From Escherichia coli (lineage in GTDB: Bacteria > Pseudomonadota > Gammaproteobacteria > Enterobacterales > Enterobacteriaceae), in assembly GCF_024223415.1 (NCBI RefSeq), contig NZ_CP100500.1: a stretch of DNA of 64,000 bases. One strand, given 5' to 3'. Of the stretch, positions 3,280 through 27,771 are shown piece by piece. Under the pieces are notes generated by a model, which ran no database searches, was not told the DNA's origin, and saw only the letters and a list, made by a program, of their open reading frames with translations. The stretch's first letter is position 1. Every line of letters begins with the position of its first letter. A program made the translations under genes and the position numbers.

Positions 3280-3789
3280 ATGGCGACGCTGACAGAAGAT
3301 GATGTGCTTGAGCAACTGGATGCACAGGACAATTTATTTTCATTTATGAAAACTGCGCATTCTATTTTGCTCCAGGGGATACGCCAGTTTCTGCCGTCGC
3401 TGTTTGTCGATAACGATGAAGAGATCGTCGAATATGCAGTGAAGCCGTTACTCGCCCAAAGCGGCCCGCTTGACGATATTGATGTCGCACTGCGTTTGAT
3501 TTATGCGCTGGGGAAAATGGATAAATGGCTGTACGCCGATATCACGCATTTTTCCCTGTTCTGGCATTACCTGAACGAACAGGATGAAGCGCCCGGATTT
3601 GCCGATGACATGACCTGGGATTTTATCAGCAACGTCAATAGCATAACCTGCAATGCGACGCTCTATGACGCGTTGAAAGCGATGAAGTTCGCCGATTTCG
3701 CCGTCTGGTCAGAGGCGCGTTTTAGCGGAATGGTCAAAACGGCGCTGACGCTGGCAGTAACGACCACCTTAAAGGAATTAACGCCGTGA
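3280..3789 (+). CDS. yggD: MtlR-like small protein (reported as fumarase E)
   Basis: 169-aa ORF; synteny. Confidence 0.8.
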   Translation: MATLTEDDVLEQLDAQDNLFSFMKTAHSILLQGIRQFLPSLFVDNDEEIVEYAVKPLLAQSGPLDDIDVALRLIYALGKMDKWLYADITHFSLFWHYLNEQDEAPGFADDMTWDFISNVNSITCNATLYDALKAMKFADFAVWSEARFSGMVKTALTLAVTTTLKELTP

Positions 3790-4499
3790 AAATTGAATTA
3801 ACGGTGAATGGGCTGAACGTGCAAGCGCAGTACCATGATGAAGAGATAGAACGCGTGCATAAACCGTTGCTGCGTATGCTGGCGGCCTTACAGACGGTAA
3901 ATCCGCAGCGCCGAACCGTGGTTTTTCTTTGCGCTCCGCCGGGGACGGGGAAATCTACCCTAACCACCTTCTGGGAATACCTCGCGCAACAAGACCCGGA
4001 ACTGCCCGCTATTCAGACGCTGCCGATGGATGGTTTTCACCATTACAATAGCTGGCTGGATGCGCATCAATTGCGCCCCTTCAAAGGCGCACCAGATACA
4101 TTCGATGTGGCGAAACTGGCGGAAAATCTGCGCCAGGTAGTGGAAGGGGATTGTACGTGGCCGCAATACGATCGACAAAAGCATGATCCGGTTGAAGATG
4201 CGTTGCACGTTACCGCACCACTCGTCATCGTCGAAGGAAACTGGTTGTTGCTGGACGACGAGAAGTGGTGCCAGCTTGCGCAATTTTGTGATTTCTCGAT
4301 CTTTATCAACGCGCCAGCTACTGCGTTGCGGGAACGACTGGTAGGGCGCAAGCTGGCGGGAGGGGTATCGCTGGCAGATGCAGAAGCTTTTTATGACCGT
4401 ACCGACGGGCCGAATGTTCGCCGGGTGCTGGAAGAGAGTCTGCCTGCAAATTTGACTTTAATGATGACCGCTACGGGTGAATATCGTCTGGTGGATTAA
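3786..4499 (+). CDS. yggC: P-loop nucleoside/pantothenate-kinase-like protein
   Basis: 237-aa ORF with Walker A motif PPGTGKST; overlaps yggD stop. Confidence 0.85.
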   Translation: MKIELTVNGLNVQAQYHDEEIERVHKPLLRMLAALQTVNPQRRTVVFLCAPPGTGKSTLTTFWEYLAQQDPELPAIQTLPMDGFHHYNSWLDAHQLRPFKGAPDTFDVAKLAENLRQVVEGDCTWPQYDRQKHDPVEDALHVTAPLVIVEGNWLLLDDEKWCQLAQFCDFSIFINAPATALRERLVGRKLAGGVSLADAEAFYDRTDGPNVRRVLEESLPANLTLMMTATGEYRLVD

Positions 4500-5148
4500 C
4501 GTTCCTGATTAGACCATCTTCCAGTCGCACCACACGAGAGAAATGACGCCGGGTAAATGCGGCGTCATGACTGATTGCTACGACGCTCGTGCCTCGCTGG
4601 CGGCACTTCTCCAGCCAGCTTTCAAACACGCTCAACCAATTTTCGTCAAAATCCCGACTCGGCTCGTCCAGCAGCAATAGTGGCGGAGAGAGTGCTTCCA
4701 GGCAGGCGACGGCGACCATCCGTCGCTGCGCACTATGCAGATCCAACGGGTGCGCGTTGGCAGTGTCTGCTAACTGACAACATTGCAGGGCAGCATGGGT
4801 ACGTTGAGTGATTTCATCCGCCGGGCATTTTTGCAGTTTCAAACCAAATGCGATCTCGTCAGCGACGGTGCTGTGAAAAAGTTGGTTTTCCGCTTCCTGA
4901 AACAGTACGCCAATCTTTGCCGCGCGCTGGCGGTTTTTCAGGTTTTTCATCGCCTGTTGTTGCAGCATAACCGTACCGGCTGTGGGCGTAAGAAGACCTG
5001 CCATTACTCGTAACAGCGTCGATTTCCCTGCGCCATTGTCGCCGGTCAGCGCCAACCATTCACCTTGTTTGAGTTGCAGAGAAATGTCGCAAAGACAATC
5101 CGTTGCCGCGCCAGGCCAGCGATAAGATATCTGATTTAACGTTAACAT
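4471..5148 (-). CDS. ECF/ABC transporter ATPase, second subunit, degenerate signature motif
   Basis: Walker A GDNGAGKST, Walker B LLLLDEP, H-loop ISHD, but LHSAQRR in place of LSGGQ; ATG at 5148 lies 1 nt upstream of the stop of the preceding ATPase gene (ATGnTAA); 3' end overlaps yggC convergently. Confidence 0.7.
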   Translation of the reverse strand: MLTLNQISYRWPGAATDCLCDISLQLKQGEWLALTGDNGAGKSTLLRVMAGLLTPTAGTVMLQQQAMKNLKNRQRAAKIGVLFQEAENQLFHSTVADEIAFGLKLQKCPADEITQRTHAALQCCQLADTANAHPLDLHSAQRRMVAVACLEALSPPLLLLDEPSRDFDENWLSVFESWLEKCRQRGTSVVAISHDAAFTRRHFSRVVRLEDGLIRNVNPPDDIHP

Positions 5149-5825
5149 AGTGGCTGGAGCGCTCCGTTTTGCAATTGCCACGCTTGCTGGCAGTAGTTCA
5201 GGAAAGGTGTGCGATGACGTTCAAAAAGAATAATCAGCGAACCACGTTCAAACGCCCAGTGTTGTAAGCGCTGCAACAGCATTTCGCTGGCCTGCGGCGT
5301 CAGGCGGCTAAAGGCTTCATCAAGAATTAATAGCTTTGGCTGCATCGCGATGGCGCAGGCGATGACCACGCGCTGTGTCTCTCCACCGGAGAGTGTTGCC
5401 GGGTGACGATGGCGCAACGGCTGGCACTCGGTCAGAGTCAGGGCGGCATCAATCCGAGCCATAATCTCTGCTTCAGCAAGACACAGATTTTCTGGCCCAA
5501 AGGCAACTTCTTCTTCCACGCTAAAGGTACAGCCGGAGAGCTGCAAATAGGGCGATTGCTGGACGAGCTGGATGGTGGCGGATTGTTCATTAAGCGGGAG
5601 ATGCCCAATGGGCGTACCGAGGAGCGTCCCCGTGCCTGTTATCTCTCCTGGCAGAAAGTCCGGATACCAGCCCGCCATCAGCTGTGCCAGCGTACTTTTG
5701 CCACTGCCGTTGTCACCAAAGATGGCGACCATCCCCGGTTTGACATAGTGAAAGTCATAACAGAACGGAGGATGTGTTGAGTGTGTCGGGCAATAACGGA
5801 ACTGTTCTAACGTAACCATATCCAC
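5142..5825 (-). CDS. ECF/ABC transporter ATPase, first subunit
   Basis: Walker A GDNGSGKST, canonical signature LSGGETQR, Walker B LLILDEA. Confidence 0.75.
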   Translation of the reverse strand: MDMVTLEQFRYCPTHSTHPPFCYDFHYVKPGMVAIFGDNGSGKSTLAQLMAGWYPDFLPGEITGTGTLLGTPIGHLPLNEQSATIQLVQQSPYLQLSGCTFSVEEEVAFGPENLCLAEAEIMARIDAALTLTECQPLRHRHPATLSGGETQRVVIACAIAMQPKLLILDEAFSRLTPQASEMLLQRLQHWAFERGSLIILFERHRTPFLNYCQQAWQLQNGALQPLC

Positions 5826-6514
5826 GCTCCGAATTCTGTCAGCATCAGCAAGATCATGGTGTAACGCGCTACGCGTTGTAGGGTGCTATCGGCTGGTGCC
5901 CACAACGTTGTTCGTCGATTGTGGATCCGAAATGCCCGCATATCCAGCGCCGCACCACGGACAGCAAGATCGTTTAGCGCATTGTGTGTTAGCGGAATAA
6001 TTAACGCGGGCATCGCACGTAAACGCTGATACCAGCCCTCATCCAGCGGCACGCCGCGGGCACGCTGCGCTTCATGAATAATCGCTAATTGCCGTTTTAA
6101 CTGCTCAACGACCAATAACGGCCCGGCAAACAGATAAGCGACGCCTGGCGGCAGGCGAGAAGCAAACAGAGCGCGGATAAAACATTGCACGGGGACGTAC
6201 TGCATCCACAACTGTGAGGTTGAAACAATCGCCAGAATCCGCAACCAGAGCGTAATAGCATGCGTCCAACGCTCCGGCGAACGCGGCGTGCCGCTTAGCC
6301 ATTCTGTTAGCCAGCCACCGTGTACCAGCCACAGCCCGGCTCCCAGCGAGAACATCAGCCAGACGACATATTTTGCCCGCCGCCGCGTGGCCTTTAGCGC
6401 AATAAGGCAGAAAAAGGTCGCCGCGCTATAGATCGGCAAAATGGTCTGCGCGGGCAGGATAAGCGTGGTGCAGGCCGCCAATGCCCACAGTGTTAATGAG
6501 GTAAATGGATGCAT
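5807..6514 (-). CDS. ECF transporter transmembrane T component (CbiQ/EcfT-like)
   Basis: Hydrophobic 235-aa protein with Ala-Arg-Gly motif (EAQRARGVP); start ATG directly abuts stop of upstream S gene (TAAATG). Confidence 0.65.
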   Translation of the reverse strand: MHPFTSLTLWALAACTTLILPAQTILPIYSAATFFCLIALKATRRRAKYVVWLMFSLGAGLWLVHGGWLTEWLSGTPRSPERWTHAITLWLRILAIVSTSQLWMQYVPVQCFIRALFASRLPPGVAYLFAGPLLVVEQLKRQLAIIHEAQRARGVPLDEGWYQRLRAMPALIIPLTHNALNDLAVRGAALDMRAFRIHNRRTTLWAPADSTLQRVARYTMILLMLTEFGAWIWLR

Positions 6515-7093
6515 TTAGCGCACGGCAGCCATTGCCGGAAAATGGCGCGTGGTGCGAATCGGCAGCTGGCGCAGTAAAAGCCAGACAATCACCGCTGTAA
6601 GAGTTTTATCGACCAGGTTCGCGCCTATCACCGTAATCGCCACCGACTCCACCAGGTTTTGCCCCATCGAGTGCATCCAGGCAACGAACAAATCGGCTCC
6701 GCTACCGGTGACACCGCCGAACAGCGCAGTACGCAGCGGTACAGCGACGACCGTTACCGCAAGCGTAATAATCACGCCGCTGACAACGACTTTTGGCAGG
6801 GTGCGGAACCAACCCGCTCGCGCCAGCCAACCGGCGACCAGGCCGATGACCATCGCCACGGGCGCAAATGCGGCGGCGATCGGGTCGGTCAGCAATCCCC
6901 AGAGTAAATTGGTCAGTAAACCGGTCAGCATCCCGATCACCGGACCAAGCAGTACCGCGCTAATAAGTGTGCCGATGGAGTCGAGAAATATAGGTAATTT
7001 GACCATGCTGGCCAGTTGCCCGCCGATCATATTGATGGCGATAGATATAACGATTAACACCAGCGCCTGACTGGAAAAGTGGCTACGCGCCAT
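6515..7093 (-). CDS. small integral membrane protein, candidate ECF substrate-specific S component
   Basis: About 192 aa of mostly hydrophobic helices; preferred start ATG 7093 with GAGAGG Shine-Dalgarno upstream (track ORF extends to 7192); position immediately upstream of T and A genes. Confidence 0.55.
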   Translation of the reverse strand: MARSHFSSQALVLIVISIAINMIGGQLASMVKLPIFLDSIGTLISAVLLGPVIGMLTGLLTNLLWGLLTDPIAAAFAPVAMVIGLVAGWLARAGWFRTLPKVVVSGVIITLAVTVVAVPLRTALFGGVTGSGADLFVAWMHSMGQNLVESVAITVIGANLVDKTLTAVIVWLLLRQLPIRTTRHFPAMAAVR

Positions 7094-7115
7094 AAGAAAA
7101 CCTCTCTGAAAGTAG

Positions 7116-7547
7116 TTATTTAACGGGGGAAATATGCAACTCGTCGTAACCAGAAAGCGCGCAAGGTTGGCGGCTAAACGCCAGTTCCTCAAGGCTACCG
7201 ATCACCAGTTCAAGCGTGGTCCGCACGGTACAGCCGGGCATCATATGACCGCCAAGCATCGTGCCGTGTGGATCGGAAACGCAGAGATGAAGATGCTCAC
7301 CACTCTGTTCCAACGTGCCGTTTAGTGAGATCACTTCGAATGTACCGTTCAGGAGCGTGGTGCCTTCTTGCCCGGCATAGCGCAAGGCGATGTCAGTCAG
7401 GCTACCGGTACAGCCTGCAATCCAGGCGGCATGAAGTTGCTGCTGCTGTGCAAAAGCGTGTAGCTGGGAAAAAACTTCCTGCCCGGGGAGGAGGCGCAGT
7501 GCGTAAAAGCGTGCGGAGGAAGAATATGGGTAGGGCAATGTCATCAT
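7116..7547 (-). CDS. small soluble protein, possibly DUF296/PPC-domain family
   Basis: 143-aa ORF, first gene of the minus-strand operon; family assignment from memory of sequence character only. Confidence 0.45.
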   Translation of the reverse strand: MMTLPYPYSSSARFYALRLLPGQEVFSQLHAFAQQQQLHAAWIAGCTGSLTDIALRYAGQEGTTLLNGTFEVISLNGTLEQSGEHLHLCVSDPHGTMLGGHMMPGCTVRTTLELVIGSLEELAFSRQPCALSGYDELHISPVK

Positions 7548-7918
7548 TGGAGTACTCCGAAACTCGGACGTATTGCGGATAATATCGACGCTGCATCAGT
7601 CATATTCTGATATAAGTCAGGGTTTGTGACGGCACAACGAAAAGATTTTGCTACGCTTATTCGTGATTCTGCAAAGTGGAATAAATTCCACAGGGGCGGG
7701 GCTGAAAACGTGACGTAAGTCAGATAATTGTCTTCTTTGACTGGACAATCATTCCTTTTATTCCACGTTTCGCTTATCCTAGCTGAAGCGTTTCAGTCGA
7801 TTAAATGTTCGACAATTAACCAATCAGTCGCAGTTTGCGACAGGTAAGGTTTCCCCGGACGATTTGCTGGATTACTCTGTCTGGCAAATTTGCTCAGGGA
7901 AAACCTTGCAGGAGATCT

Positions 7919-8938
7919 ATGACCGTACGCGTAGCGATAAATGGCTTCGGTCGCATCGGGCGTAATGTGGTTCGTGCTTTGTATGAATCCGGACGCCGGG
8001 CGGAAATTACCGTGGTGGCAATCAACGAACTGGCGGATGCTGCGGGCATGGCGCATTTGTTGAAATATGACACCAGCCATGGCCGTTTTGCATGGGAAGT
8101 ACGACAGGAACGCGATCAACTTTTTGTTGGTGATGACGCCATCCGCGTATTGCATGAACGTTCACTGCAATCGCTCCCCTGGCGTGAACTTGGCGTTGAT
8201 GTAGTCCTCGACTGCACCGGCGTATATGGCTCCCGCGAGCATGGCGAAGCGCATATTGCCGCCGGGGCCAAAAAAGTGCTCTTTTCACATCCTGGCAGTA
8301 ACGATCTCGACGCGACCGTTGTTTACGGCGTCAATCAGGATCAACTTCGTGCGGAACACCGCATCGTTTCTAACGCTTCCTGTACCACGAATTGCATAAT
8401 TCCCGTCATCAAATTGTTAGATGATGCGTACGGTATTGAGTCCGGCACTGTGACCACAATTCACTCCGCCATGCACGATCAACAGGTTATTGATGCATAC
8501 CATCCTGACCTGCGTCGCACCCGGGCAGCCAGCCAGTCGATCATTCCGGTCGATACTAAACTGGCCGCCGGTATCACACGATTTTTTCCGCAATTTAACG
8601 ATCGCTTTGAAGCGATTGCGGTACGTGTGCCAACCATAAATGTGACGGCAATCGATTTAAGCGTGACGGTGAAGAAACCTGTAAAAGCCAATGAAGTCAA
8701 CCTGTTGCTGCAAAAAGCAGCACAAGGTGCATTTCATGGTATAGTTGACTATACGGAATTGCCGTTGGTCTCTGTAGATTTTAACCACGATCCGCACAGT
8801 GCCATTGTCGATGGCACCCAAACCCGGGTCAGTGGCGCACACCTGATCAAAACGTTGGTCTGGTGCGATAACGAATGGGGCTTTGCTAACCGAATGCTCG
8901 ACACGACGTTAGCTATGGCTACTGTTGCTTTCAGGTAA
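7919..8938 (+). CDS. epd: D-erythrose-4-phosphate dehydrogenase
   Basis: Starts [15 protein letters not shown] (GAPDH-family NAD-binding motif), 339 aa; AGGAG Shine-Dalgarno; upstream part of the track ORF rejected. Confidence 0.95.
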
Positions 8939-11509: not shown

Positions 11510-11610
11510 GCCTGATGCGCTACGCTTATCAGGCCTACACGTATCCTGCAATATATTGAATTCGCAGGTTTTTGTAGGCCGGATAAGGCGTTCACGCCGC
11601 ATCCGGCATG
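11510..11610. repeat. BIME: two REP palindromic units in opposite orientation
   Basis: gcctgatgcgctacgcttatcaggcctac and gtaggccggataaggcgttcacgccgcatccggcatg. Confidence 0.8.
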
Positions 11611-12711: not shown

Positions 12712-12720
12712 ACTACCAAT

Positions 12721-13764
12721 TTAACGCATTGTTTCATCAAGTATATTGGCAACTTTTTGCATGACTTCCCCGGCATTATCCACGCCTTCAGTTTTTTGCT
12801 GTTCTACCCACTGCGTTTGCTCTTGCTGATAACCAATCGCTTTCTGCCAGGCGTCCAGCTCTGATTTTTTCAAATAGCGAACCTGTGCACCTTCCTGCTC
12901 AAGCGTTTTTACCATGCTGATCAGGTTGTTATCTAATGCCTTGCCCAGCGCTTTCTCGGTTGTAATGGCCGCTCGTTGAATAGCCTCACGATCTCTGTTA
13001 TCAAGGTTTTCCCACGTTTGTTTATTCATTACCAACAGATAAACATGACCAAGCCAGAGCGAAGGGGAGAGCAACACATTCGGCGCAGCACGTTCAGCAT
13101 GGATGTCATATCCGCTATCAAGATTGACCATTAAGCCATCGAGTTGTCCGTCGCGGAGTGCTGTCGTAATTTGCTCATTCCACGGTAAGGTTACGGTTTT
13201 TGCCCCCGTATGAGTTAAATAAGCCCGGTGCCAGAAACTGGCTGTTCGCCAGGTGGTTCCCTGAAGTGCAGTCAATTTATCAATGGGCCTGGTAGAGAAA
13301 AAGCCTACCGGGTAGCCAAGGAAAAACTGTAAATTCACGATATTGTTACGCTCAAGTTCAGCGTTAAACTCGGGAATTTCCGCATATACGCGACGAAAGA
13401 ATTCTACCTGACTGGCTCCATGATCCGGGCCAATAGCAAAGCTCTTGAAGATTTGATGAAGCGGTAATTGTTTCGCTGTGTATTCCGGTACCACTATACC
13501 CATATCAGCTTTGCTACCATCACTTATTGTCGTCAGAGCGTCATAGCTGATGGCGGTTTCACCGTTCCAGTGTGGTTCGATTTTCAAACGCCCCTGCGAC
13601 TCTTTTTCAATTTCTGCAAAAAATATCTCTTTAATTATTTGTGTACGCATTCCCCCGTAGGGTTCATGGTCTGTATAACGAAGAATTTTTTCAGCGGCAA
13701 CGTTGTGGGAAGATATCAGAAGTAATCCTGATACCAGAGAAAGTAAAAAGTGTTTGAATGTCAT
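12721..13764 (-). CDS. secreted DctP-like (TRAP-type) solute-binding protein, orphan
   Basis: Signal-peptide-like N-terminus MTFKHFLLSLVSGLLLISSHNVAA when started at ATG 13764 (track ORF starts 13806); FFAEIEKESQGRLKIEPHWNG resembles the conserved N-terminal region of DctP-family binding proteins as I recall it; no permease genes adjacent. Confidence 0.55.
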   Translation of the reverse strand: MTFKHFLLSLVSGLLLISSHNVAAEKILRYTDHEPYGGMRTQIIKEIFFAEIEKESQGRLKIEPHWNGETAISYDALTTISDGSKADMGIVVPEYTAKQLPLHQIFKSFAIGPDHGASQVEFFRRVYAEIPEFNAELERNNIVNLQFFLGYPVGFFSTRPIDKLTALQGTTWRTASFWHRAYLTHTGAKTVTLPWNEQITTALRDGQLDGLMVNLDSGYDIHAERAAPNVLLSPSLWLGHVYLLVMNKQTWENLDNRDREAIQRAAITTEKALGKALDNNLISMVKTLEQEGAQVRYLKKSELDAWQKAIGYQQEQTQWVEQQKTEGVDNAGEVMQKVANILDETMR

Positions 13765-13818
13765 CTCAGTTCCATCTGTAATTTTATTGGTCGTCATTAA
13801 TATCAAAAACCGTGAACT

Positions 13819-26764: not shown

Positions 26765-26905
26765 TAAAGCCCTCACCGAAGCGAGGGCTTGAAGGAGAAG
26801 GGTTATGATGCGACTTGTCATCATACTGATTGTACTGTTACTCATAAGTTTCCCAGCTTATTAACAGTCAGTCTCAGGGGAGGAGTCATCCTCCCTTACC
26901 CTTAC
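26765..26905 (-). ncRNA. sibC: Sib antitoxin sRNA antisense to ibsC (ends approximate)
   Basis: Minus-strand sigma70-like promoter TTGACA (26940-26935), 18-nt spacer, TAATTT (26916-26911) downstream of the ibsC stop; known ibs/sib architecture. Confidence 0.55.
26805..26864 (+). CDS. ibsC: type I toxin, Ibs-family hydrophobic peptide (19 aa)
   Basis: atgatgcgacttgtcatcatactgattgtactgttactcataagtttcccagcttattaa encodes MMRLVIILIVLLLISFPAY; GAAGGAGAAG Shine-Dalgarno upstream; below the length cutoff of the ORF track. Confidence 0.75.
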   Translation: MMRLVIILIVLLLISFPAY

Positions 26906-26964
26906 TCACTAAATTAGGTTAAAGAATCAACGATGTCAATCAGGGCGATGCAGGTGTGTCGCCC

Positions 26965-27585: not shown

Positions 27586-27771
27586 AGGGAATCTCCGAGA
27601 TGCCGCCGCAGGCTGTAACCCTTGAACCCTTGGTTCAAGGTGAATGTGTCGTCGCAGTTTTAAGGCTTCTCGGACGGACCGAGCATGCTCACCAACCGCG
27701 GAGCGCCACATTCTTGTGGTATGAAATATCGGCTCAGGGGACTGGCCCGCTTGCGAACATCTCAGAGAAAT
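27586..27771 (-). ncRNA. ssrS: 6S RNA
   Basis: Reverse complement of AUUUCUCUGAGAUGUUCGCAAGCGGGCCAGUCCCCUGAGCC...GGCAUCUCGGAGAUUCCCU matches over the whole length. Confidence 0.9.

Follow-up and report, generated by a model that had tools for sequence, protein, structure and literature searches.

O-island 119 of Escherichia coli carries a predicted energy-coupling factor importer with the PCC-domain protein LmiA as a conserved fifth component

Group I energy-coupling factor (ECF) importers such as BioMNY, CbiMNQO and YkoEDC consist of a substrate-capture (S) component, a CbiQ/EcfT-type scaffold (T) component with XRG motifs and two EcfA-type ATPases (A and A'), which are encoded together and have no solute-binding protein. 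In the system formed by the CD3073 family (NF045596) and the CD3072-family TudS-related desulfidase (NF045597), the layout is S-T-A-A plus one soluble cytoplasmic protein. We analysed a 64,000-nt stretch of Escherichia coli DNA (RefSeq assembly GCF_024223415.1, contig NZ_CP100500.1), referred to here as the window, in which five tightly packed minus-strand genes lie at 4471–7547 between yggC and epd. Their products share the composition of the group I importers and the layout of the CD3073/CD3072 system, whose S family is the best-scoring one for this locus. In contrast to BioMNY, CbiMNQO and YkoEDC, a cytoplasmic protein with a PCC (also PPC or DUF296) domain is a fixed fifth gene here, the Enterobacteriaceae versions of the ATPases have a length of only 225 aa and the signature motif of the second ATPase (A2) is degenerate. 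In contrast to the CD3073/CD3072 system, the soluble partner is the PCC protein and not a [4Fe-4S] TudS-like desulfidase.

The locus has already been published and annotated and is not itself a discovery. It was described as O-island 119 (OI-119) of enterohaemorrhagic E. coli (EHEC) O157:H7, comprising z4267–z4271, with LmiA as the product of the first gene (PMC7667037, PMC8565820, PMC11657066). The LmiA papers present z4267 (lmiA) as a DUF296 'DNA-binding protein' with a proposed zinc site at His85/87/101, and LmiA as a PhoP-activated regulator of the enterocyte-effacement locus (LEE) and the gad genes, lmiA being activated by PhoP at low Mg2+. In the same papers z4268 and z4269 are 'hypothetical', an ECF transporter was not recognised and the island is treated as horizontally acquired. 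The length of OI-119 in EDL933 is 3267 bp (PMC8565820). Although the window comes from another strain, comparison by BLAST with a K-12-type junction showed 132 bp in place of exactly 3267 bp (Table 1), and His85, His87 and His101 of the window protein are the published LmiA positions. The size of this indel, the exact PhoP footprint, the position of the transcription start site and the three histidines thus establish that the five-gene locus between yggC and epd in the window is OI-119 with lmiA. Our literature searches on DUF296 together with ECF, on PF03479, on CD3073 and on STM3071-3075 yielded no description of the transporter and no link between PCC proteins and ECF systems. What is new here is the recognition of OI-119 as a predicted ECF importer that would be ancestral rather than acquired, and of LmiA as an enzyme-like fifth component conserved across many phyla.

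The gene models were checked against E. coli SCU-316, a strain labelled as of commensal source, in which a stretch 100% identical to the window was found by megablast (query, window 4300–8000). The open reading frames agree with its RefSeq/PGAP models, which also fix the start of the S component at the ATG at 7093 and not at the TTG at 7192. PGAP names the five products 'PPC domain-containing DNA-binding protein', 'ECF transporter S component', 'energy-coupling factor transporter transmembrane component T' and, for the last two, 'ABC transporter ATP-binding proteins'; the adjacent yggC is annotated in SCU-316 as a nucleoside/nucleotide kinase family gene. The PCC stop codon is separated from the S start by a 22-nt spacer with an AGAGAGG ribosome-binding site, the S stop and T start meet in TAAATG, the T 3' end and A1 start share 13 nt, A1 and A2 join through ATGTTAA (ATGnTAA), and the 3' end of A2 overlaps that of the convergent yggC by 29 nt. 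The tight packing and the two junction types described in an earlier model reading of the letters alone, hereafter the sequence-only reading, therefore agree with open reading frames, PGAP models and junction sequences alike. The GC content of the operon, 53–57%, is close to the window mean of 52%.

We then examined the evidence for an ECF transporter. The S component matches PF12822 (ECF_trnsprt, E=8e-8) in Pfam. A sequence search of the S component against PDB gave no match, and a fold search was therefore required. The top 19 PDB matches returned by Foldseek for its AlphaFold (AF2) model, which has a predicted local distance difference test (pLDDT) score of 93.9, are all ECF S components (FolT, RibU, PanT, ThiT, BioY and the S subunit of 4huq), with probabilities of 0.92–1.0 and template modelling (TM) scores of about 0.5–0.6. 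The best NCBIfam family is NF045596 (CD3073 family), at 134.9 bits under a cut-off of 180, which places the S component in a sister clade of that family. The T component has a weak Pfam match to PF02361 (CbiQ, E=2.7e-4), carries the coupling motifs ARG (residues 152–154) and VRG (residues 185–187), and forms one cluster with the T orthologs of 63 loci. For both ATPases the best NCBIfam matches lie among ECF_ATPase_1/2 and cbiO, all under the equivalog cut-offs: ECF_ATPase_1 and cbiO for A1, ECF_ATPase_2/1 for A2. A1 has the Walker A motif GDNGSGKST, the signature LSGGETQR and the Walker B motif LILDEA, conserved in its orthologs. Walker A and B are intact in A2 as well, and its signature LHSAQRRM replaces LSGGQ, the degenerate form LH[STAV][AG]QRRM being found clade-wide, so that one ATP site of the pair probably lacks catalytic activity. 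As a separate observation, the ATPases of Proteus, Providencia and other taxa exceed those of Enterobacteriaceae in length by about 55 residues.

No solute-binding protein gene was found in or beside the operon, either among the open reading frames of the window or in the SCU-316 annotation, and the presence of its own T, A and A' genes marks this as a dedicated (group I) system. These results support the prediction that the operon encodes an ECF-type importer, which fits every feature tested. The architecture proposed by the sequence-only reading was borne out by the S fold matches, the T component with its two XRG motifs, the two different EcfA/CbiO-type ATPases, the missing solute-binding gene and the PGAP names; the membrane proteins classify as ECF-type and not as a non-ECF ABC permease family.

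The same reading had called a small soluble DUF296-like protein an unusual first gene for such an operon. The family assignment was right (PF03479), and the gene proved to be a conserved hallmark of this transporter clade instead. We scanned one genome per species with an alignment of eight S-component sequences and obtained 80 loci. The order PCC-S-T-A-A on one strand was found in 78 of them, with a median distance of about 25 nt between the end of the PCC gene and S; only two Kaistia loci, at 47–49% S identity, lacked the partners. The 78 loci span Enterobacterales (including Morganellaceae, Hafniaceae and Budviciaceae), Aeromonas, Wohlfahrtiimonas, Beta- and Alphaproteobacteria, Synergistaceae, one spirochaete (Spirochaetaceae), Chloroflexota and Desulfobacterota, with S identity down to 49%. 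In a metagenomic variant (L004), three S paralogs come after PCC and surround a fused T-A-A gene. There is no general sixth gene around the module among the 80 loci, where only a YedF-like gene, described below, recurs. The PCC gene is missing from loci whose S identity is about 40%. The LEE is confined to a few enterobacterial pathogens, and the conserved role of the PCC protein would therefore lie with the transporter. As the best explanation of the whole, we consider it moderately probable that LmiA belongs functionally to the transporter module and is not an unrelated passenger. LmiA would be a cytoplasmic partner that most likely binds the compound brought in, or converts it chemically, and in this way may signal that it is there, and the LEE and gad effects in EHEC would be a lineage-specific output added onto this ancestral role.

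Several rearranged forms of the transporter genes were also seen. T, A and A' are fused into one protein of 684–910 aa in Synergistaceae (L058, L067, L074, L076) and in the metagenomic L004, and S-T fusions of 463–491 aa exist. S-component-like membrane domains are fused to sensor histidine kinases in proteins of 447–935 aa (P0211, P0218, P0230), where the ECF S fold may be reused as a ligand-sensing input domain.

The distribution of the island bears on its origin. Among 5426 complete E. coli genomes of all kinds, 3319 (61%) carry the island in full and 2106 match the epd flank only; 5425 of 5427 places are chromosomal. The suspicion of the sequence-only reading that K-12 has no such genes between yggC and epd was correct for K-12-type strains: no orthologs were seen there, the 2106 genomes have the epd flank only, and the 132 bp described above replace the island in one of them. 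In 24 of the 80 loci the module lies divergent beside epd-pgk-fbaA with the spacing seen in the window. These loci come from 11 Enterobacteriaceae genera: Escherichia (E. albertii, E. whittamii and 'Escherichia sp.'), Atlantibacter, Kluyvera, Citrobacter, Silvania, Klebsiella, Pseudescherichia, Superficieibacter and Phytobacter, plus a metagenome-assembled genome, are the taxa represented. The opposite flank is yggC-fumE-glpX in 11 of the 24. Annotation and a repeat search revealed no tRNA, integrase or transposase gene and no flanking direct repeats at the island, so that with its fixed location in 11 genera it does not have the marks of a mobile island. Its GC content, near the genome average, is likewise in keeping with an ancestral position. 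K-12-type strains also keep the upstream portion of the lmiA control region, as far as about the -35. The shared position beside epd in 11 genera argues for loss from K-12 rather than gain by EHEC, and the simplest reading is that Enterobacteriaceae inherited the module vertically and that some E. coli lineages deleted it. The module would thus be ancestral at the Enterobacteriaceae epd locus and would have been deleted in the K-12 lineage and in about 39% of E. coli.

Two neighbouring regions also vary. The window yggC (3786–4499) is 85.8% identical to the allele of an island-negative E. coli (L002, 4212–4925), with the last 69 bp unaligned, and 91.2% identical to that of E. albertii; between the island-negative E. 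coli and the window, fumE is 97.5% and epd 100% identical. The divergence of yggC is thus very local, deep and allelic, and is linked to the presence or absence of the island. Downstream of mscS, the window holds a gene for a TRAP-transporter substrate-binding protein and a hypothetical gene at about 12720–13765 (L001, 14422–15465). In the island-negative comparison genome argO lies directly downstream of mscS, and the TRAP region may be a further presence/absence difference.

We further explored what kind of protein LmiA is. It matches PF03479 in Pfam (E=4e-28) over the full length of the domain model and of the solved fold; the structure of the Salmonella ortholog (2HX0/2NMU) is a structural-genomics target only. 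Across 75 PCC orthologs, 17 positions are invariant, including H85, H87, H101, E71, E113, E136, R18, R56, R126, T110 and T111, and this pattern of three histidines with glutamates and arginines looks like a metal-and-ligand site. The orthologs are acidic, with a median isoelectric point (pI) of 5.6 and values below 6.5 in 71 of 75. The nearest folds outside the PCC family are zinc enzymes, alpha-acetolactate decarboxylase (ALDC) and PTD012, not DNA binders. Both of these enzymes bind zinc through three histidines, as LmiA is proposed to do, whereas their identity to the PCC protein is 9–17% and the latter is a single domain of half their size. Plant AHL proteins, which combine an AT-hook with a PPC domain, share the PF03479 domain including its G-x-F-E-I/V-x-S-L-x-G core. 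In AHL proteins, however, the AT-hook and not the PPC domain contacts DNA, and LmiA has no AT-hook; bacterial PCC proteins seem to owe the name 'DNA-binding protein' to the architecture of these plant proteins. The published 17-bp LmiA motif has no match in the window with up to 3 mismatches, and thus none near its own operon.

Leads to the substrate came from more distant relatives. Among S components of 40–42% identity, the informative operons all hold pyrimidine-nucleoside enzymes. In one sister operon, S-T-A-A is preceded by a GntR regulator and a RihA/RihC-like nucleoside hydrolase, and a second module lies beside two PNP/UDP-type phosphorylases. Another has a RihC-like hydrolase directly before S, a third a uridine-phosphorylase-like gene before A-A-S-T, and a fourth a CD3072-family TudS-related desulfidase (141 bits, above the cut-off) after S-T-A-A. 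TudS enzymes desulfurise thiouracil and 4-thio-UMP (PMC10611767). Several distant S contexts were uninformative, being a lone S gene, S beside peptidase genes or short contigs. Where the sister operons have a hydrolase, phosphorylase or desulfidase gene, the module studied here has PCC. Within the PCC clade itself, a gene of 116–120 aa resembling the C-terminal half of YedF ('sulfurtransferase-like selenium metabolism protein', TIGR03527, 107 bits) directly precedes PCC at 9 loci, seven from Chloroflexota and two betaproteobacterial (L057, L063, L064, L066, L068, L070, L072, L086, L087), about 800–960 nt upstream of S, which extends the module to six genes. The Morganella and Brucella loci have TsuA/YeeE homologs in their vicinity. 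In the delta-lmiA mutant of the 2024 LmiA paper, 'nucleotide transport and metabolism' was among the COG classes enriched in up-regulated genes. From these few and distant gene contexts we tentatively suggest, as a possibility still open to considerable doubt, that the substrate is a pyrimidine nucleoside or base derivative, perhaps modified with sulfur or selenium. The bolder proposal is that the PCC clade is a new kind of cytoplasmic enzyme, dependent on a metal held by three histidines, for a modified pyrimidine nucleoside or base (for example thio- or seleno-uridine from gut RNA turnover) brought in by its own ECF importer, LmiA acting on EHEC virulence and acid-resistance genes as a trigger enzyme or through a metabolite and not as an ordinary transcription factor gained horizontally; in this specific form we think it unlikely.

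The features of the locus are collected in Table 1. The epd-lmiA intergenic region was aligned for 16 Enterobacteriaceae sequences from 10 named genera. At the level of the consensus, the promoter and leader blocks are strongly conserved in all of this set; they are not conserved in Morganellaceae, Hafniaceae or other phyla, which argues for local regulation and not for a family-wide riboswitch. Consistently, the Rfam scan that the sequence-only reading had recommended for a 370-bp 'leader' (7548–7918) turned up no riboswitch: there was no such match at the gathering threshold in the whole window, and at E values up to 10 the region 7400–8000 gave one chance-level match (E=3). Of this 'leader', the published 5' untranslated region accounts for 90 nt, and the stretch is mostly a regulatory region shared by epd and lmiA. 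Elsewhere in the window the scan found ordinary E. coli features: the ES036 small RNA (11531–11573, downstream of fbaA), SIB RNA (26789–26939) and 6S RNA (ssrS, 27588–27771). All 16 sequences and island-negative E. coli retain the CRP-like site, which may therefore act on the divergent epd promoter as well; the Cra-like box belongs to that promoter. The spacing between the palindrome and TATTAT is that of a class II CRP/FNR-type promoter located downstream of the published start. Together with the hairpin, in which the Shine-Dalgarno would be sequestered, it suggests a second, CRP/FNR-type promoter and translational control, neither of which is in the LmiA papers.

Table 1 Positions of the OI-119 genes and regulatory features in the window
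Feature	Position	Strand	Remarks
Extent of the presence/absence polymorphism (OI-119)	4431–7697		3267 bp, junction BLAST
A2, EcfA'-type ABC ATPase, z4271	4471–5148	minus	225 aa; degenerate signature motif
A1, EcfA-type ABC ATPase, z4270	5142–5819	minus	225 aa; canonical motifs
ECF T (scaffold) component, z4269	5807–6514	minus	235 aa; PF02361 CbiQ
ECF S (substrate-capture) component, z4268	6515–7093	minus	192 aa; PF12822
lmiA (z4267), PCC/PPC (DUF296) protein	7116–7547	minus	143 aa; PF03479; first operon gene
Operon promoter and leader	7548–7727	minus	published sites and 16-sequence alignment
Hairpin including GGAG Shine-Dalgarno	7556–7568	minus	one compensatory change in Superficieibacter
TGAT-N4-ATCA palindrome	7607–7620	minus	centre exactly 29.5 nt upstream of conserved TATTAT 7579–7584
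Published transcription start, base T	7637	minus	90 nt upstream of ATG (PMC7667037)
Published -10 TAGCAAAAT	7645–7653	minus	
Published PhoP footprint CTTACGTCACGTTTTCAGC	7701–7719	minus	single exact match in window; -82 to -64 of start site
CRP-like site TTATCTGA-N6-TCAC(G/A), TGTGA-N6-TCACA-type	7706–7727	minus	contains the PhoP footprint/'PhoP box'
Cra-like box ACTGAAACGCTTCAGCT	7781–7797		conserved block in epd-lmiA intergenic alignment

Several observations weigh against a transporter-bound, nucleoside-related role of LmiA. Purified LmiA shifted and footprinted the LEE1, gadA and gadBC promoters and was enriched there in chromatin immunoprecipitation with quantitative PCR (ChIP-qPCR), as reported by one group. 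Single deletions of z4268–z4271 left adherence and LEE expression unchanged, so that under those conditions the LmiA output was independent of the transporter. No fusion of PCC to S, T or A was found; the additional parts of the long S homologs are extra helices, fused T components or histidine-kinase modules. The nucleoside lead comes from five informative contexts of S components only 40–42% identical, the E. coli S component is itself under the CD3073-family cut-off, and a GntR regulator stands first in one sister clade, so position alone cannot separate an enzyme from a regulator. The published DNA-binding data would be accommodated if LmiA were a ligand- or metal-sensing transcription factor that ancestrally controlled its own ECF operon and was later recruited to the LEE and gad genes in EHEC, with no enzymatic or transport role. 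The mobility shift, DNase I footprint and ChIP-qPCR results, the place of lmiA as first operon gene, the GntR gene at that place in the sister clade and the UniRef name of the Salmonella bongori ortholog, 'putative regulator of transporter operon', all agree with it. The invariant residues, the acidic pI, the enzyme folds, the lack of an AT-hook and the absence of the LmiA motif near its own operon favour a ligand-binding or catalytic partner, although they do not disprove the published DNA binding, and we regard a purely regulatory LmiA as rather doubtful.

The literature view goes further in separating LmiA from its neighbours, taking OI-119 as horizontally acquired and LmiA as a stand-alone virulence regulator beside unrelated or redundant ABC genes by chance. 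The absence from K-12, which holds by the definition of an O-island, and the silent z4268–z4271 deletions are in line with it. It is nevertheless extremely improbable in view of the five-gene order kept in 78 of 80 loci and at least six phyla, the common site beside epd in 11 genera, the upstream half of the lmiA regulatory region (to about the -35) retained in K-12-type strains, the missing mobility genes, tRNA and repeats, and the occurrence of the island in E. coli of every kind (61% of complete genomes). Metals offer another account, in which the ECF system imports a transition metal or chelate, or answers divalent-cation limitation, and the PCC protein with its three histidines is a metallochaperone induced by PhoPQ at low Mg2+. 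The invariant His85/His87/His101 of the proposed zinc site, the zinc-binding nature of the related ALDC and PTD012 folds, the published PhoP-dependent induction at low Mg2+ and the copZ and copA-type genes just downstream of the module in two Synergistaceae loci would fit. However, the S component is of the vitamin type (PF12822) and not CbiM/NikM, with no conserved N-terminal His motif; the sister clades are linked to nucleoside enzymes and not to metal genes, which neighbour the module in only 2 of 80 loci; and a conserved CRP-like site, which may act on the epd side as well, occupies the same place as the 'PhoP box'. We therefore judge the metal account quite improbable, and favour LmiA as a functional partner of the ECF importer.

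Since K-12 has no ECF transporters, the same is often assumed of E. coli, yet a predicted ECF importer is encoded in 61% of complete genomes. LmiA, described as an acquired DNA-binding protein, would have an enzyme-like metal site and be regularly partnered with an ancient transporter module that extends over at least six phyla, which would reframe the route by which low-Mg/PhoP signalling reaches the LEE in EHEC. For the PCC/DUF296 family of bacteria, which is large and uncharacterised, the module provides a first biochemical setting that can be tested, and it is a candidate uptake route for modified nucleosides.

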